Origin: a bacterium
GTDB lineage: Bacteria; Patescibacteriota; Patescibacteriia; JAGPKW01
Assembly (NCBI GenBank): GCA_021780535.1
Contig: JAJXYN010000009.1
Span: 224,360 to 288,359, forward strand
Length of the DNA stretch: 64,000 nt
Direction: 5' to 3'
In this document: positions 20,680-47,890 of the stretch, piece after piece
Layout of the letters: each line of letters starts with the position of its first letter
Position numbering within the stretch: the stretch's first letter is position 1
Translations under genes and position numbers: made by a program
The notes under the pieces: generated by a model
Told to the model about the DNA's origin: nothing
The model's database searches: none
What the model saw: only the letters and a program-made list of their open reading frames with translations

Positions 20680-20774
20680 TTAATTATAGTTTAAATTTAT
20701 TAAATTTATTAAATTTTTAAACTCTAATATTTTTATCAATTAATTTATAGTATTAATTCACAAAAATATTTTAT

Positions 20775-23427: not shown

Positions 23428-23688
23428 TTATCTGCTTTTTAAATTATCCCATTTGAAGAAAATGGTATTCTTTCCTATTAATAATCCTATTATAACAAAA
23501 CAAACAAATCCCATAACTAATGTGTCTTTTGAATTAATATTTGTATAATTAAGCAATATTATTAAAACTGAAACCATAAAAACTTTCCCGGAATATATCG
23601 CGATTTCTCTTGTTACTATATAACCACTTATATCATCACCTTTATCTGCTTCTTTTTTGTACCAATAAGATTCATATGGGGTCTTCAT
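23428..23688 (-). CDS. Small 2-transmembrane membrane protein, possibly a detached C-terminal fragment of the upstream MFS gene
   Basis: 86 aa with two hydrophobic helices. Lies 32 nt downstream of the MFS-like ORF on the same strand. Confidence 0.35.
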   Translation of the reverse strand: MKTPYESYWYKKEADKGDDISGYIVTREIAIYSGKVFMVSVLIILLNYTNINSKDTLVMGFVCFVIIGLLIGKNTIFFKWDNLKSR

Positions 23689-23720
23689 TATTGATTCTGA
23701 TATATTTTGATAAACAATTG

Positions 23721-24644
23721 CTAAAAAACATTTACATTACTAATGGCAAACAATTTTAAAAGCCATCCAAATCCATAGAGAAATGAACCTGTTTTTAATA
23801 AATTATGGTCTTTATCTTGATCTGACAATTTACCTATTATTAAATTTATAAAAAATGTTGCTATCAGTGTTAATGAAGTAAAACCACCTAGTATTGTAAA
23901 ATTTTTATTAAATATCAAGACTATAATTATGGGCCATATTATTAATGAAAAAACTGTTTCACATCCTTCTAAAAAGTGAATGAAAAAATCCTTAACACGT
24001 TCTTTTGAAAAACATTGTATAAATGTTCCTATATATGAATAAGAATAATATAATTTTACATTTAATATTTTTATAAGTGGAAATAATGATAATAAATAAA
24101 AAAATGTTGTAACAATAAACAATCCGGTAAACCCAAAAAAATTTATTATTAAACCTCCAACAAATGGTAAAAATATATTTAACAAACTAAGAATTGATCT
24201 TATAATACCTATTTCAAATCCTCTGTTTTCATTTGTAGTGTTTAATGCTAAATCTATTCTAAATGGTATTCTAAAAAGTATTCTTGATAGTGTTAAAAAT
24301 ACTATATTTACAAACATCCATAAATATAAATTTTGTTCCCAAAATATAAATGATATATTACTTAATGATAAAAATATACTTCCTATTATTATAGATCTTT
24401 TCAACCCCAATAGAGATACCATTTTACCTCCCAATGGAAGTATCAATACCATTGCAATAGATGATATCAAAAAATAAGCTAATGTCATTTTTAATGACTT
24501 TCCAAATTGTAAATAAACAAAAAAAGTACTAAACATGCCAAGCATATTAGAACCTATGTTTCTTGTTTCATATGAAAGAAACAGTAAGAAAAAGTTATTT
24601 TCTTGTTTTGAAATCAATGATTTGATACTATTAATAAAGTCCAT
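23721..24644 (-). CDS. MFS-type transporter, N-terminal portion (apparently truncated at 307 aa)
   Basis: About 8 transmembrane helices. Loop 2-3 motif PLGGKMVSLLGLKRSIIIG resembles the MFS G-x3-D/G-R-x-G-R-R motif. Too short for a 12-transmembrane MFS. Confidence 0.5.
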   Translation of the reverse strand: MDFINSIKSLISKQENNFFLLFLSYETRNIGSNMLGMFSTFFVYLQFGKSLKMTLAYFLISSIAMVLILPLGGKMVSLLGLKRSIIIGSIFLSLSNISFIFWEQNLYLWMFVNIVFLTLSRILFRIPFRIDLALNTTNENRGFEIGIIRSILSLLNIFLPFVGGLIINFFGFTGLFIVTTFFYLLSLFPLIKILNVKLYYSYSYIGTFIQCFSKERVKDFFIHFLEGCETVFSLIIWPIIIVLIFNKNFTILGGFTSLTLIATFFINLIIGKLSDQDKDHNLLKTGSFLYGFGWLLKLFAISNVNVF

Positions 24645-24692: not shown

Positions 24693-25985
24693 ATGAATTT
24701 TTTAAAGAAAAATGCTGGGAAGATATTAATATTCATCCTATCCTTAATCCCAATAATTTTTTGGGCAACAACTTACGATCTGCAAACAAAGTTTAATACA
24801 ATAAGCTCTACCTTTATATCTCTTACTCAATTATCTGGATTAGTCGGTTTTGTTTTATTTGCTGTAAATATAATAATAGGAATGAGATCAAAAATACTTG
24901 AAAAGTTTTTTAATTCTATTCCTGATATTTATAAACTGCACAGATTTTTAGGAATATCATCTTTTGTTTTATTATCTCTTCACCCACTTTTTATTATTAT
25001 AAATTATTTATCTTTTTCAATTAAATTTGCTGTTGATTATATTTTTTCTTTTACTGATTTAAGTTTGTCTTTAGGAAAAATTTCACTAATTGCAATGTTT
25101 TTTATCATATTAACGACAATATTTTTAAAAATAAAATATGACACATGGAAAATAATCCATAAAATTTTATCATTTTCTTTTTTTATTGGATTTTTTCATG
25201 TATTAGTTGTAAATAGCACTGTATCAAGAAATATGGGATTACGATATTACTTGCTTTTTTTAGGCACAATTACTGCTTCACTTGCTATATATAAAATTAT
25301 TTTTAATATAAATTTAGCAAAAATTTATAAATACTTGGTTGTTAATATAAAATTTATAAACAATAATTCTATGGAAATAGAATTATCTCCCATTGATAAA
25401 AAAATATATTTCAAACCAGGCCAATTTGTCTTTATAAAAATTAATCAAGAAAAATTAGATGAAGAACATCCTTTTTCTATATCATCAGGAGTTAATGAAA
25501 AAAATTTAAAAATTACTGTTAAAAATCTTGGAGATTATACTTTAGATTTAAGAAATAAATTAAAAATGAATTCTATAGTTAGCATAGATGGCCCTTATGG
25601 TGATTTTTATACTGATAATAAAAAAGATAAAATATTTATAGCTGGCGGAATAGGAATTACACCATTTTTAAGTATATTAAAAGCTGAAAGAACAAAAAAT
25701 AATATTACATTATTTTTTTGTGCTAAAGATAAAAGCGAATCAGAACTTATTAATGACATAAAACAAACACAAGATATTCATCCAAATTTAAATATAATTG
25801 AAATATATTCCTCAATAAGAGATCGTATTTCTATTAAAGATATTAAAAGCGTCCCAAATTTTGAAAATTCTGATATTTTTATTTGTGCGTCAAGCGTTAT
25901 GATGAATGATATTAAAAATCAACTTATAAATAATGGGTTTGATAAAAAAAATATTTACTTTGAAGATTTTAGTTTTAAAAAATAA
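24693..25985 (+). CDS. NOX/ferric-reductase-like flavocytochrome (FRD transmembrane domain plus FAD and NAD(P)H-binding domains)
   Basis: Two His pairs spaced 13 residues apart in transmembrane helices (HRFLGISSFVLLSLH, HKILSFSFFIGFFH) for bis-heme. HPFSISS FAD motif. GGIGITPF NAD(P)H motif. Confidence 0.8.
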   Translation: MNFLKKNAGKILIFILSLIPIIFWATTYDLQTKFNTISSTFISLTQLSGLVGFVLFAVNIIIGMRSKILEKFFNSIPDIYKLHRFLGISSFVLLSLHPLFIIINYLSFSIKFAVDYIFSFTDLSLSLGKISLIAMFFIILTTIFLKIKYDTWKIIHKILSFSFFIGFFHVLVVNSTVSRNMGLRYYLLFLGTITASLAIYKIIFNINLAKIYKYLVVNIKFINNNSMEIELSPIDKKIYFKPGQFVFIKINQEKLDEEHPFSISSGVNEKNLKITVKNLGDYTLDLRNKLKMNSIVSIDGPYGDFYTDNKKDKIFIAGGIGITPFLSILKAERTKNNITLFFCAKDKSESELINDIKQTQDIHPNLNIIEIYSSIRDRISIKDIKSVPNFENSDIFICASSVMMNDIKNQLINNGFDKKNIYFEDFSFKK

Positions 25986-26053
25986 TTTTGAGTAAATTTA
26001 TAAAATAAATAATCGTATTAAAAATATAGACTTAATTAAGTATTAATAATTTT

Positions 26054-26551
26054 ATGGAAACAAAAAATATTGTTGTAGCTAGCGTTGTTGGAGTTGCTGC
26101 TGTAAGTTTTATTGGATGGCAAATCTCAAATAGTAAGAGCTATCAACCATCACAACAAAATAATTCGTTATCAACTACTACTAATACTGACAGTGGCCAA
26201 AATAATATTACTACCCCAACTGTTACTAGTACAAATAATCAAAACAATTCTACTTCATATAAAGATGGTAGTTATTCTGCAGATGGCTCTTATTTAGTTT
26301 CTGATAAACAAGAAACTATTAAACTGTTATTAGATATATCTAATAACAAAATAACATCTGCTAGTATCACACCTATTAACGTTAGCCATGATAGTCAATT
26401 TTATATCAATATGTTTCAACAAGGATTCACTTCTTTGGTTGTAGGAAAAAATATAGATGACGTAAATTTAACTGTTGTAAATGGTGCATCTTTAACTCCT
26501 AACGGCTTTAACGAAGCTTTAAATGCTATAAAATTACAAGCTAAAAACTAA
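26054..26551 (+). CDS. Membrane-anchored extracytoplasmic FMN-binding domain protein (flavinylation substrate candidate)
   Basis: N-terminal transmembrane helix, Ser/Thr/Asn-rich linker, and a C-terminal FMN_bind-like domain with VVNGASLTPNGFNEALNAI (the [S/T]GA[S/T] flavinylation-type motif). Confidence 0.6.
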   Translation: METKNIVVASVVGVAAVSFIGWQISNSKSYQPSQQNNSLSTTTNTDSGQNNITTPTVTSTNNQNNSTSYKDGSYSADGSYLVSDKQETIKLLLDISNNKITSASITPINVSHDSQFYINMFQQGFTSLVVGKNIDDVNLTVVNGASLTPNGFNEALNAIKLQAKN

Positions 26552-26554
26552 CTA

Positions 26555-27430
26555 ATGAAAAAATTTGAATTTGATTCTATTGGATCTCATTTTGAAATAT
26601 CTATTTACGATAATATTGATGATGTTTTTTTTGAACAAATAAAATCTGACATACTTGCTTGGATAAATGATTTTGATAATAAATACTCTAGATTCAAAGA
26701 TTCTTCTGTTGTTTCTTTTTTAAACAATAAAATTGGAGTATTTTCTGTAAGAGATGATTTTTCAGAAATAATGACTTGGTATTTTAAATTGTATAAATTA
26801 TCTAACCACAAATTTACTCCACTTATAGGATCTATGTTAGATGATCTTGGTTATGATAAAAATTATACCTTAATACCAAAGGATAAAATTAATAATATAT
26901 CTGATTTATATGAATCAATAAAAATTTTAGATAAAAATAAAATAGAAATAATAAAACCAGTTAATTTAGATTTTGGTGGAGTTGGAAAAGGATATTGCGT
27001 TGATGTTATAAAAAGTAAACTAGAAAAATATAATATAAAAAAATTTATAGTTAATGGTGCTGGAGATATTTTTTATAAAACAAATGATACTGAATCAATA
27101 ATTTCTGGACTTGAAAATCCTAATAATTTTTCTCAAATAATAGGAACTATAAACATTAAAAATCAATCTATTTGTGCATCTTCTGGAAGTAGAAGAAAAT
27201 GGGATAAATATCATCATATAATAGATCCTGACTTAAAAAAACAAAATGACGAAATAGTTGCTACCTGGGTAATAGCAGAGAATACCTTGATAGCAGATAC
27301 AATAGCTACATGTTTATTTATGTGCTCACCAGAAAATTTTCAAAATGATTTTAAATTTGAATACTGTATATTAAATAAAGATATGAAGATAAAAAAGTCA
27401 AATGGATTTGATGCTAAATTTTATCAATAA
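26555..27430 (+). CDS. apbE: FAD:protein FMN transferase ApbE
   Basis: GGVGKGYCVD (ApbE GG[IV][AG]KGY) and SSGSRRKWDKYHHIIDP C-terminal motif. Confidence 0.8.
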   Translation: MKKFEFDSIGSHFEISIYDNIDDVFFEQIKSDILAWINDFDNKYSRFKDSSVVSFLNNKIGVFSVRDDFSEIMTWYFKLYKLSNHKFTPLIGSMLDDLGYDKNYTLIPKDKINNISDLYESIKILDKNKIEIIKPVNLDFGGVGKGYCVDVIKSKLEKYNIKKFIVNGAGDIFYKTNDTESIISGLENPNNFSQIIGTINIKNQSICASSGSRRKWDKYHHIIDPDLKKQNDEIVATWVIAENTLIADTIATCLFMCSPENFQNDFKFEYCILNKDMKIKKSNGFDAKFYQ

Positions 27431-27507: not shown

Positions 27508-27756
27508 ATGTATATAGAAGTTACGGAAACCAAATTTTATAGCATCATTACAAAATTAGAACAAGCCGGTATCTCCTTTATTAGAAATGATGACCCAAAA
27601 AATGGTACCGCTATATTTATATATAAAAAAAATGGGAAAGATAAAGTTATTGCTAGAATACATGTAGAAAATTTTAGTGATCCAAAAGAAATATGGAAAA
27701 GAATATATCAAATAGATAATATATTTTTTAAAGAACTTGAAATTCCTATAGATTAA
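27508..27756 (+). CDS. Small paralog-family protein 1 (82 aa)
   Basis: GGAGG ribosome-binding site. Shares a core with the next two genes (T/D-A-I-I/F-I-Y-K-K-N-G…R-V-I-A-R-I-H). Confidence 0.55.
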   Translation: MYIEVTETKFYSIITKLEQAGISFIRNDDPKNGTAIFIYKKNGKDKVIARIHVENFSDPKEIWKRIYQIDNIFFKELEIPID

Positions 27757-27945: not shown

Positions 27946-28230
27946 ATGCTTATAGACGTTACAGAGGCTCAGTTTCGTAGTTTTATCGATGAATTGGATA
28001 AAAAATTTCGTGAGAATGGAAAAATCCTAACAATGGACGATGATTTTAAAAATGATACAGCCATTATATTCTGTTATGCAAAAAATGGTATAAATAGAAT
28101 TGCTGCTCGAGAATACGTGAAAAATCCTACTGATCTAAAAATAGAATGGACAAAGGGATACGAAATAAATGATAAATTATTTGATGAATTTAATATTTCA
28201 ATAGAAGGCTTTCAGATTCTTACACGGTAG
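27946..28230 (+). CDS. Small paralog-family protein 2 (94 aa)
   Basis: MLIDVTEAQFRSFIDEL…TAIIFCYAKNGINRIAAREYV is homologous to the proteins encoded at 27508 and 28369. GGAGG ribosome-binding site. Confidence 0.55.
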   Translation: MLIDVTEAQFRSFIDELDKKFRENGKILTMDDDFKNDTAIIFCYAKNGINRIAAREYVKNPTDLKIEWTKGYEINDKLFDEFNISIEGFQILTR

Positions 28231-28368: not shown

Positions 28369-28644
28369 TTGTATATAGATATTACGCCAAACCAATTTAT
28401 TGACCTTATCAAGATACTGGCCGTTAGAATAAAAGAAAATGGAGCATCTCTTGAAAGGCATGGTGATCACAAAGATGGTATAATTATATTTATTTATAAA
28501 AAACATAATATGACAAGAGTTATTGCTAGAATACATAAATATAACCCGAATAAACAAAATAAAAATTTGGAGAAAATATATCAAATAGATGATAGGTTGT
28601 TTAAATATTCTATTATTTCTACTGAAGATATGAAAACTTTTTAA
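28369..28644 (+). CDS. Small paralog-family protein 3 (91 aa, TTG start)
   Basis: MYIDITPNQFIDLIK…GIIIFIYKKHNMTRVIARIH. GGGGG ribosome-binding site upstream. The start codon is TTG. Confidence 0.5.
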   Translation: MYIDITPNQFIDLIKILAVRIKENGASLERHGDHKDGIIIFIYKKHNMTRVIARIHKYNPNKQNKNLEKIYQIDDRLFKYSIISTEDMKTF

Positions 28645-46204: not shown

Positions 46205-47827
46205 ATGATAAAAGAAAATAGAAATTTAAAATATGCTATATATCTTCGTAAATCAACTGATAGTGAAGATAGACAAGTTCAGTCAATAGAAGACCAAGAA
46301 AAAGAAATAAATATTTTAGTAGAAAGAGAAGGAATTAAAAAAGAAAATATAATAGAAATCTTCAAAGAAAGTAAATCTGCCAAAAAACCTGGGAGAGAAG
46401 AATTCAATAGAATGATGTGTTTAATAAAAGAAGGCAAAATTGATAGTGTTATGTGTTGGAAATTAAATCGTTTAGCAAGAAATCCTATCGATGGTGGCGA
46501 AATTCAATGGTTACTACAACAAAATATAATTAAATCAATATTAACAAATGAAAGAGAATACCTTCCAACTGACAATGTTCTTATGATGGCAGTTGAATTG
46601 GGAATGGCAAATCAATTTGTATTAGACTTAAGTAAAGATGTTAAAAGAGGAATGAGGGGTAAAGTAGAAAAAGGCTGGAGACCAATGAGAGCTCCCATTG
46701 GATATATAAACGACAAAGCTGGTAATAAAGGAGAGAAAAAGATTTTTAGAGATGAAACTAGATTTGATATAGTGAGAAAGTGTTGGGAGCTTTTATTTAC
46801 AAGAAAATATACAGTACCAGAAATTACAGAAATAGCTAATGAAACATATGGTTTAAGAGACTATAAAGGTGAGAAAATAAATAATAGCACCTTTTATAAG
46901 ATATTTAGAAATACTTTTTATTATGGAGAGTTTAGTTATTGTGGCGAAGTGTATCAAGGAAAACACGAACCAATGATAACAAAAACAGAATTTGAATACG
47001 CTCAAGATATTTTAAGTGGTAGTAAACATAATAAAAGACCAAAAACAAAAAATCTCCCATACAATGGAATTATTACTTGTGGCGAATGTGGCTGTTATAT
47101 TACATCAGAAGAGAAAATAAAATATGTTAAGTCAGAAAATAAAGTCAAAAATTATGTATATAATAAATGTTGTAGTAATAATAGATGTTTTAAATGTTCT
47201 CAGAAGCCAATAAAATATGAAGAATTGTCTGAACAAGTTAAAAAATACCTAGAAACAATAAAGATAACTGATAAATTTTTTAATTTTGCCCTAATGGTTT
47301 TCAAAGAAAGAAATATGGTAGAAGAAGAAAATAGAAATAGTATCATAAGAAACTTACAATCAAATCATACGGAGGTTATAAAAAAGATAGATAACTTAAT
47401 AAATTTATTTGTATCTCAAAATAATCAAAATAGAGAGCTTTTAAGTGAAGATGAATATATTTCTCAAAAATCATTTCTTGCTAAAGAAAAAATAAGAATA
47501 GAACAACAAATAAAGGATATTATGGAAGAAACATCAACTCAAGATAAAAGATTTGATGACGAAATAAACTTTGTTCATACAGAAATAGAAATGTTTGATA
47601 ATGGGAGTTATGAAAAAAGAACTCAAATATTAAGAAAAATGGGAGAAAGCTTTATTTTAAAGGATGGAATGCTTGATATACAATTAAAAAAAGTATTTCT
47701 AACATTCACTACTTACCAGTCAGAGTATAAAAAGAGAGAAATAGAACTAAGCAATATAAGAAATTTCAGCGAATTTAAAACAAAAAAAGAAGCTGATGCT
47801 TCTTTTCGTTCTATCTGGAGCGGGTAA
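46205..47827 (+). CDS. Large serine recombinase (integrase)
   Basis: N-terminal resolvase domain (AIYLRKSTDSEDRQ…LNRLARN), recombinase domain and Cys-rich zinc ribbon (CGECGCYIT…C…C). 540 aa. Confidence 0.85.
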   Translation: MIKENRNLKYAIYLRKSTDSEDRQVQSIEDQEKEINILVEREGIKKENIIEIFKESKSAKKPGREEFNRMMCLIKEGKIDSVMCWKLNRLARNPIDGGEIQWLLQQNIIKSILTNEREYLPTDNVLMMAVELGMANQFVLDLSKDVKRGMRGKVEKGWRPMRAPIGYINDKAGNKGEKKIFRDETRFDIVRKCWELLFTRKYTVPEITEIANETYGLRDYKGEKINNSTFYKIFRNTFYYGEFSYCGEVYQGKHEPMITKTEFEYAQDILSGSKHNKRPKTKNLPYNGIITCGECGCYITSEEKIKYVKSENKVKNYVYNKCCSNNRCFKCSQKPIKYEELSEQVKKYLETIKITDKFFNFALMVFKERNMVEEENRNSIIRNLQSNHTEVIKKIDNLINLFVSQNNQNRELLSEDEYISQKSFLAKEKIRIEQQIKDIMEETSTQDKRFDDEINFVHTEIEMFDNGSYEKRTQILRKMGESFILKDGMLDIQLKKVFLTFTTYQSEYKKREIELSNIRNFSEFKTKKEADASFRSIWSG

Positions 47828-47890
47828 GGAGAATCGGACTCCCCTCTTCAGCTTGGAAGGCTGACATAATAGCCACTATACGATACCCGC
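47816..47890 (-). tRNA. tRNA-Gly (anticodon TCC), CCA encoded, with an atypical T-loop (C at position 55)
   Basis: Reverse complement GCGGGTATCGTATAGTGGCTATTATGTCAGCCTTCCAAGCTGAAGAGGGGAGTCCGATTCTCCTTACCCGCTCCA. 7-bp acceptor stem and anticodon stem TCAGC/GCTGA. The 3' 12 nt overlap the recombinase stop. Confidence 0.65.

Follow-up and report, generated by a model that had tools for sequence, protein, structure and literature searches.

A 64-kb stretch of DNA from a candidate-phyla-radiation (CPR) / Patescibacteria bacterium (hereafter the window, i.e., the whole stretch that was analysed) carries a cluster of three genes at positions 24693-27430. The cluster encodes a NOX-like flavocytochrome (open reading frame (ORF) 1), a membrane-tethered protein of 165 amino acids (aa) with a flavin mononucleotide (FMN)-binding type of domain (ORF 2) and an ApbE-family FMN transferase (ORF 3). 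In our view, these three genes probably constitute a minimal one-way transmembrane electron-transfer unit. Cytoplasmic NAD(P)H would reduce the flavin adenine dinucleotide (FAD) of the NOX-like dehydrogenase domain, from which electrons would cross the membrane via two b-type haems held by H83/H156 and H97/H169. The exposed outer haem would then pass them to an FMN on Ser146 of the 165-aa protein, tethered at the outer face by its N-terminal helix and a flexible linker, with ApbE forming the covalent FMN from FAD. The tethered flavin would in turn hand the electrons to an external acceptor, for instance Fe(III), O2, a free flavin or a substrate of the cell surface or the host. The unit could serve a fermentative Patescibacteria cell as an outlet that regenerates NAD(P)+ or reduces iron. 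Within this scheme, four points are our inference: that electrons physically pass from haem to FMN, the direction in which they flow, what finally accepts them and in which place ApbE carries out the flavinylation.

Our analysis established the domain content, the cofactor-binding residues, the fold, the topology signals and the recurrent gene linkage described below. The functional-unit reading draws on the gene identities, the intact cofactor and catalytic residues, the FMN_bind fold and the invariant acceptor serine. It further builds on the tight arrangement of the genes on the + strand, with no other membrane partner in 64 kb, and on the recurrence of the triad in differing gene orders (loci L060 and L142) and in 16 of 80 loci surveyed from the NOX side.

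Domain content and cofactor sites of the three proteins

The cluster comprises the following features:

24693..25985, + strand: NOX-like (SpNOX-type) flavocytochrome, 430 aa (predicted from Pfam, PDB match and conserved motifs)
26054..26551, + strand: membrane-tethered FMN_bind-fold protein, 165 aa (predicted from homologue profile and AlphaFold model)
26489..26491, + strand: codon of Ser146, the predicted FMN acceptor in V-N-G-A-S-L-T (translation, invariance in 36 homologues, 8p2a alignment)
26555..27430, + strand: ApbE-family FAD:protein FMN transferase, 291 aa (predicted from Pfam and aligned motifs)

The NOX-like and FMN_bind genes are separated by 68 bp, the FMN_bind and apbE genes by 3 bp.

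ORF 1 matched the Pfam families Ferric_reduct at residues 49-166 (E 4.6e-14), FAD_binding_8 at residues 213-303 (E 1.8e-12) and NAD_binding_1 (PF00175) at residues 315-406 (24.5 bits, cut-off 22); NAD_binding_6 scored under its Pfam cut-off. The best PDB match was the NADPH oxidase (NOX) of Streptococcus pneumoniae (SpNOX; 8qt6/8qq7, E 1e-35, residues 53-429), to whose dehydrogenase domain the C-terminal FNR-like domain of ORF 1 aligns. A hydropathy scan yielded six transmembrane (TM) segments. The sole histidines among residues 1-215 are H83/H97 in TM3 (i+14) and H156/H169 in TM5 (i+13). An alignment of 30 ORF 1 homologues shows no variation at any of these four. In the same alignment, H259-P260-F261 of the FAD motif HPFS (H259-P260-F261-S262), C398 and the C-terminal F426 are invariant as well. 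Within the GGIGITP motif (G318-P324), G318, G319, G321 and P324 do not vary either, and conservation at I320, I322 and T323 is 90% or higher. Because domains, PDB match, TM count, haem histidines and FAD/NAD(P)H motifs are all present, ORF 1 is predicted to carry every feature expected of a working protein that moves electrons across the membrane by means of two haems, FAD and NAD(P)H. Judging from its sequence, it is an SpNOX-type flavocytochrome with a bis-haem TM domain and a cytoplasmic FAD/NAD(P)H dehydrogenase domain.

ORF 2 had no Pfam match over its full length. It is laid out as a TM anchor (aa 6-24) that looks uncleaved and lacks a lipobox, a linker rich in S/T/N/Q (~aa 25-68) and the FMN_bind domain (aa 70-165). 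We found 64 homologues, and 15 of the 36 that were aligned matched FMN_bind at E < 0.01. The family profile also matched PDB entry 8p2a, the crystal structure of a flavinylated FMN-binding domain (E 0.007). Here, the family motif V-a-G-s-S-L-T-S aligns over V-S-G-A-T-Y-T-S, which places S146 opposite the Thr of SGAT. An alignment-based AlphaFold model had a predicted local distance difference test (pLDDT) score above 90 at residues 70-165. Its strand-strand-strand-helix-loop-helix topology corresponds to the FMN_bind fold, in which helices accompany a sheet of three strands and the flavinylation loop precedes the last helix. The motif itself reads V-V-N-G-A-S146-L-T148, i.e., NGAS and not a strict [S/T]GA[S/T], with Ser at the acceptor position; S146 and T148 are invariant in the 36 homologues. 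From the score of the C-terminal part (weighed below), the homologue matches, the 8p2a profile match and the model, we predict that ORF 2 carries an FMN_bind domain with S146 as candidate FMN acceptor. A lipoprotein signal with a lipobox Cys is present in 20 of the 36 family members, and nearly all others have a more positive N-terminal flank. Because of these lipoboxes and the positive-inside bias of the other members, the domain is predicted to lie outside the membrane.

ORF 3 matched Pfam ApbE over residues 10-261 (profile positions 2-250, E 4.4e-38, 131.8 bits, cut-off 25.6). Its motifs GGVGKGY, YHHIIDP and ADTIAT align to the GGxxKG, HxxDP and ADxxxT sites of Thermotoga maritima TM1553 and Vibrio cholerae ApbE, and on this basis ORF 3 clearly reads as an intact ApbE. 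No hydrophobic segment, signal peptide or TM segment was found in it, and its start cannot move upstream, the TAA of the preceding ORF lying one codon ahead of the ATG. All 70 ApbEs beside the same FMN_bind subfamily in metagenome loci likewise have no space for a signal peptide, and because all of these agree, its absence is not an annotation accident. No such space exists in the ApbEs of the NOX-FMN_bind-ApbE loci of Actinobacteria and Chloroflexi either. Among characterised ApbE/FmnB enzymes, the extracytosolic ones are secreted as lipoproteins; ApbEs that stay in the cytosol and have their substrates there also exist, e.g. for the fumarate reductase of Klebsiella pneumoniae. Two ways around the missing signal peptide were considered. 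A longer ApbE hiding a signal peptide was rejected, as the stop-to-stop ORF is too short in the window and in the 70 related loci. Export of a pre-flavinylated lipoprotein by the twin-arginine (Tat) route does not provide a general answer, as an RR n-region occurs only in some Microbacterium members and is absent from most.

These results largely bear out a first-pass annotation of the window. It had placed three consecutive genes at 24693-27430, which our ORFs on the + strand reproduce exactly in their coordinates. Its identification of a NOX-type flavocytochrome agrees with the Ferric_reduct, FAD_binding_8 and NAD_binding_1 domains and the haem His pairs, that of an ApbE FMN transferase with the Pfam match and the aligned active-site motifs. 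Among the Pfam families it had named, Ferric_reduct, FAD_binding_8 and ApbE were recovered; NAD_binding_6 had to give way to NAD_binding_1, and FMN_bind stayed under its cut-off. The annotation had further described a membrane-anchored FMN_bind protein with an [S/T]GA[S/T] motif. Here, the anchor, the fold and the similarity to 8p2a held, but the motif has Asn at its first position and the Pfam match is sub-threshold. The conservation of the acceptor Ser/Thr, proposed as a check, was found in the invariant S146.

Gene linkage in relatives and competing explanations

A metagenome scan with the window ApbE as single query gave no confirmed relatives, and a scan with the FMN_bind alignment gave 80 loci. 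The FMN_bind-ApbE pair was present in 9 of the 10 loci of our first look-ups, in 72 of the 80 metagenome-scan loci and in all 38 of those measuring 5 kb or more. At the membrane, this FMN_bind subfamily is usually partnered by a ~500-aa protein with NqrB/RnfD-like, FAD-binding and NAD-binding parts (27 of the 38 long loci), as in the published NQR/RNF-like systems; the other 11 had no recognisable membrane partner nearby. A NOX-like partner of the subfamily is rare and was seen in the window, L060 and L142. In L060, from Kerfeldbacteria, a second CPR lineage, the genes overlap in the order NOX-ApbE-FMN_bind, and the FMN_bind protein belongs to the subfamily of the window. L142 has the order FMN_bind-ApbE-FRD, FRD denoting the ferric-reductase domain. 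From the NOX side, we surveyed 80 genome loci encoding FRD-FAD-NAD relatives together with their neighbours within 6 kb. An ApbE and/or FMN_bind gene was present in 16 of them (L060 included), most being from Actinomycetes or Chloroflexi, with a canonical VSGATYTS domain between NOX gene and ApbE, and one from an archaeon (L013). Taken together, the triad is not kept by the nearest relatives, yet it recurs independently elsewhere.

Some of these loci showed further peculiarities. The archaeal locus (L013:5094-7472; uncultured archaeon, CAIKWG010000005.1) contains an ApbE, a NOX-like gene and then an 84-aa ORF with a TM anchor and a proline-rich linker ending ...PPVRTTGAS-stop. The ORF thus has an [S/T]GA[S/T]-like motif at its C-terminus and no FMN_bind domain, and a tRNA-like sequence lies 3' of it, so that it is not an obvious frameshifted domain. 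Judged by its sequence, this ORF may be a minimal flavinylation tag. L005:3698-4156 encodes a second FMN_bind paralogue (152 aa, signal-like N-terminus) right 3' of ApbE, and the contig ends 28 bp on. In L007:5001-7036, a DsbB-like protein is encoded next after the FMN_bind-ApbE pair. L008:5001-8473 has a pair of an FMN_bind and an NqrB-like-NAD gene without adjacent ApbE, then an Nramp metal transporter. The neighbours in L007 and L008 hint at differing downstream uses of one tethered flavoprotein type.

The NOX side revealed a second type of partner. At least 10 loci with close CPR/DPANN homologues of ORF 1 have a recurrent gene 3' of the NOX gene, which encodes a TM-anchored cytochrome b5-like protein. 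Close homologues carry such a tethered cytochrome b5 more often than the FMN_bind-ApbE pair. The cytochrome b5-like gene lies directly 3' of the NOX-like gene in L092:2945-4766, L011, L012, L018, L026, L030, L036, L039 and L078, and such loci span CPR, DPANN and several gammaproteobacterial loci. The association of the CPR putative ferric reductase (pFre) with cytochrome b5 was first noted in a 2021 preprint, which stated that it was unseen outside CPR (bioRxiv 10.1101/2021.11.17.468889). Cases in Porticoccaceae, Marinimicrobium, Cellvibrionaceae and Accumulibacter suggest that it is wider than that.

Both sides independently support the idea of a tethered acceptor: one FMN_bind subfamily serves two kinds of NAD(P)H-dependent membrane module that are not homologous to each other, and one NOX-like family goes with either of two unrelated proteins that each bear a single cofactor and share the same build of anchor, linker and redox domain. 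The NqrB-like partnering of the FMN_bind subfamily fits the role of a generic outer-face electron acceptor. In SpNOX, the outer haem is highly solvent-exposed, proteins are reduced directly and there is no convincing O2 site, and a protein acceptor was suggested by the authors (PMC11564096, PMC11031084). The functional-unit reading fits this structural work because of the exposed outer haem and the suggested protein acceptor.

Several observations nevertheless weigh against a functional unit. At the protein level, the C-terminal 97 aa of ORF 2 score 19.2 bits on FMN_bind (PF04205), under the cut-off of 22. The first motif position is Asn instead of Ser/Thr (the family has A, S, N or G there), and the charges flanking the anchor are ambiguous, with +1 on each side. 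Moreover, the predicted locations do not match, being the cytoplasm for ApbE and the outside for the acceptor domain. At the level of gene linkage, an FRD-type partner of the same FMN_bind subfamily was present in one of the 80 metagenome loci (L142). The closest FMN_bind-ApbE pair (L005, ApbE 72% identical) stands in the order MFS, FMN_bind, ApbE, second FMN_bind, and the NOX gene is absent after the MFS gene. Around the closest NOX homologue (L091, 50% identical), the neighbouring genes are unrelated, with no adjoining ApbE or FMN_bind. L094, whose RpoD is 89% identical, matches the window in gene order as far as the MFS gene and again from ~47812, lacking the whole 24645-47815 segment. Finally, no terminal acceptor or reductase gene was identified near the cluster.

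The main rival explanation, unlikely in our judgement though to be taken seriously, is a fortuitous adjacency. ORF 1 would then act alone as an SpNOX-like enzyme on O2 or another acceptor, and the FMN_bind-ApbE pair would serve an unlinked membrane partner or a soluble function. L005, where the pair occupies the same MFS-flanked position without a NOX gene, and L091 are what one would expect in this case, and the gap before the FMN_bind gene is wider than that behind it. The triad, however, also recurs independently in L060 and L142, in other gene orders, and in the Actinobacteria and Chloroflexi loci, and 1797 such clusters have been published (Méheust et al. 2021, eLife, PMC8238504). To this, a proponent of chance could reply that 64 of the 80 NOX-like loci have no ApbE or FMN_bind inside 6 kb, that 11 of the 38 long FMN_bind-ApbE loci do without a recognisable membrane partner and that the cluster sits in a variable, island-like region. 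An external tethered flavoprotein nonetheless requires a transmembrane electron source, and no alternative one, be it an NqrB-like or a cytochrome b5 membrane partner, is present in the whole window.

We consider it improbable that the cluster is an assimilatory ferric or metal reductase feeding a transporter and not a general electron outlet. MsrQ-like and NQR/RNF-like clusters have been linked to VIT1 iron transporters (PMC8238504), and an Nramp gene follows the FMN_bind and NqrB-like pair in L008. Beside the window cluster, by contrast, no VIT1, Nramp, FTR1, P19 or reductase gene was found. A divergent MFS transporter gene does adjoin it, as in L005, but this gene is retained in L094, which lacks the cluster. 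SpNOX's activity as a ferric reductase is, moreover, very low (PMC11564096, PMC11031084).

Least probable of all is a cytoplasmic-face arrangement, in which the 165-aa protein would be oriented N-out/C-in, flavinylated by the cytosolic ApbE and partner the dehydrogenase domain as a source of electrons or as a regulator: the signal-peptide-less ApbEs of the window and all 70 related loci, the known cytosolic ApbE-substrate pair of K. pneumoniae and the ambiguous anchor charges would suit it, but the lipoboxes and positive-inside bias of the family place the domain outside, the S/T/N/Q-rich linker is typical of surface-exposed tethers, and a cytoplasmic FMN carrier would have no obvious role next to a NOX-like protein with its own cytoplasmic FAD/NAD(P)H module.

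Returning to the functional unit, the wider claims of the first-pass annotation can be judged against these data. The proposed ApbE-dependent redox module paired with a NOX-like oxidoreductase corresponds to the published MsrQ-like class (PMC8238504). The expected co-conservation of the three genes applies to the FMN_bind-ApbE pair, and the triad recurs, but the NOX gene is not kept by the closest relatives. As for extracytosolic flavinylation, the acceptor domain is predicted outside as it should be, yet the step is not straightforward with an ApbE that has no signal peptide.

Host and genomic surroundings

The host is a CPR/Patescibacteria bacterium; Patescibacteria (Parcubacteria, Komeilibacteria, Kerfeldbacteria) supply the named relatives of its RpoD, which are 62-65% identical. 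NCBI contig DAIEHF010000006.1 (assembly GCA_027355865.1) matches the window with 99.95% identity. Around the cluster, the DNA is very AT-rich (GC content 22-25%), and a promoter/terminator scan of the cluster DNA was uninformative, with fewer promoter-like sites than in shuffled sequence. The standard genetic code fits the window, as TGA is the stop of 5 of 37 long ORFs and read-through gains little. The FMN_bind and apbE ORFs share a frame and lie one codon apart. A read-through fusion or an alternative code was nevertheless rejected because the stop between them is TAA (as in all three ORFs), because TGA serves as stop elsewhere in the window and because the frame relation is not kept in L001, L005, L007 and L009.

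Upstream and divergent from the cluster lies the MFS transporter gene (23428-24644, - strand), which is split near 23722 into ORFs of 307 and 86 aa. The split is due to the loss of 1 nt in comparison with the 99.95%-identical contig, whose copy is intact at 405 aa; it reflects either a fault of the assembly or a frameshift at the level of the strain. The only other indel relative to that contig is a 9-bp insertion at 20691-20699. Directly 3' of apbE, three tandem paralogous ORFs follow on the + strand (27508-27756, 27946-28230 and 28369-28644; 82, 94 and 91 aa), with 40-43% identity to the first copy and no Pfam match.

The cluster is part of a ~23-kb segment (24645-47890) that is missing from L094. 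The segment also encodes SBP_bac_3, a methyl-accepting chemotaxis protein, a GGDEF protein, SLFN/AlbA_2, DUF2779 and a ResIII helicase with an N6/N4 DNA methylase. At its end, a large serine recombinase (46205-47827) abuts a tRNA-Gly (47816-47890), and the segment as a whole looks like a genomic island or variable region. Genes for methyl-accepting chemotaxis and GGDEF proteins are unusual in Patescibacteria.

Relation to known systems and biological meaning

The cluster type has already been catalogued, and the window provides a new example, not a new system. The MsrQ-like systems comprise 1797 clusters of PF01794, apbE and FMN_bind, 1437 of them with an NAD-binding domain, and the same pathway was proposed for them (PMC8238504). 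Operationally, they are defined by a PF01794 (Ferric_reduct) gene that has a gene for ApbE or for an FMN-binding domain no more than five genes away; in the window, ApbE lies two genes 3' of ORF 1. ORF 1 also has the C-terminal PF00175 on the membrane protein that marks the majority subclass. The proposed NAD(P)H to extracytosolic FMN pathway is shared, and the Actinobacteria/Chloroflexi loci have the NOX-FMN_bind-ApbE order of the window. The window differs in its CPR host and in an FMN_bind protein with NGAS, a Ser acceptor and a sub-threshold Pfam score, whose subfamily usually occurs with NqrB-like proteins. Extracytosolic flavinylation was reported to be strikingly under-represented in CPR and the MsrQ-like class to be mostly from Actinobacteria (PMC8238504), the former partly because predicted signal peptides were required in that survey. 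The papers that we consulted contained no biochemical characterisation of the MsrQ-like class.

With the NQR/RNF-like systems (PMC8238504; Huang et al. 2024, mSystems, PMC11334425), the cluster shares the FMN_bind subfamily, an ApbE without signal peptide and a membrane partner with a cytoplasmic FAD/NAD-binding domain. Their membrane domain, however, is NqrB/RnfD-like (PF03116) and haem-free, whereas that of the window is a bis-haem ferric-reductase domain, and the window has no NqrB-like ORF that could supply the NqrB/RnfD-like-NAD fusion typical of these systems. NqrC/RnfG and the PplA-FmnB extracellular electron transfer of Listeria differ in that their ApbE/FmnB are secreted lipoproteins and that their electrons come from quinones or multi-subunit complexes and not from a single NOX-like polypeptide.

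SpNOX resembles ORF 1 in domain order, His spacing (i+14/i+13), FAD and NAD(P)H motifs and a C-terminal aromatic residue. Identity is ~25-30% (28% in tblastn matches to Streptococcus loci), the TM3-TM4 loop is longer in ORF 1, and the Streptococcus NOX loci (L034, L035, L037, L055) have no ApbE or FMN_bind neighbour, unlike the window. The CPR clusters of pFre and cytochrome b5-like proteins (bioRxiv 10.1101/2021.11.17.468889) belong to the same NOX-like/pFre family and have a small anchor-linker-single-cofactor partner directly 3'. Its cofactor is haem in a cytochrome b5 fold, in contrast to the predicted covalent FMN of the window, which needs apbE. Against this background, the additions are modest: a CPR host, a hybrid of an NQR/RNF-like-type FMN_bind/ApbE pair with a CPR-type NOX, and an ApbE that lacks a signal peptide family-wide.

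A broader proposal, speculative and rather unlikely in our own estimate, is that the NOX-like enzymes of CPR and DPANN are general NAD(P)H-driven electron outlets with interchangeable surface-tethered acceptors, mostly cytochrome b5-like and here a flavinylated FMN_bind protein, and that the ApbE of this subfamily flavinylates its exported substrate in the cytoplasm before translocation. If true, the interchangeable acceptors would name the long-sought protein acceptor class of SpNOX-type bacterial NOX. Flavinylation before translocation would be a maturation route undescribed for extracytosolic flavoproteins and would make FAD export unnecessary. Already the cytosolic-looking ApbE beside an exported substrate, if real, changes the view of maturation in this class. 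The tethered flavoprotein is also a candidate protein acceptor for bacterial NOX enzymes of the SpNOX type, whose acceptor in the cell is still being sought (PMC11564096). For the organism itself, which is thought to lack respiratory chains, this compact three-gene version of an MsrQ-like system is a candidate means for an obligate fermenter or episymbiont to shed reducing equivalents or reduce iron at its surface.

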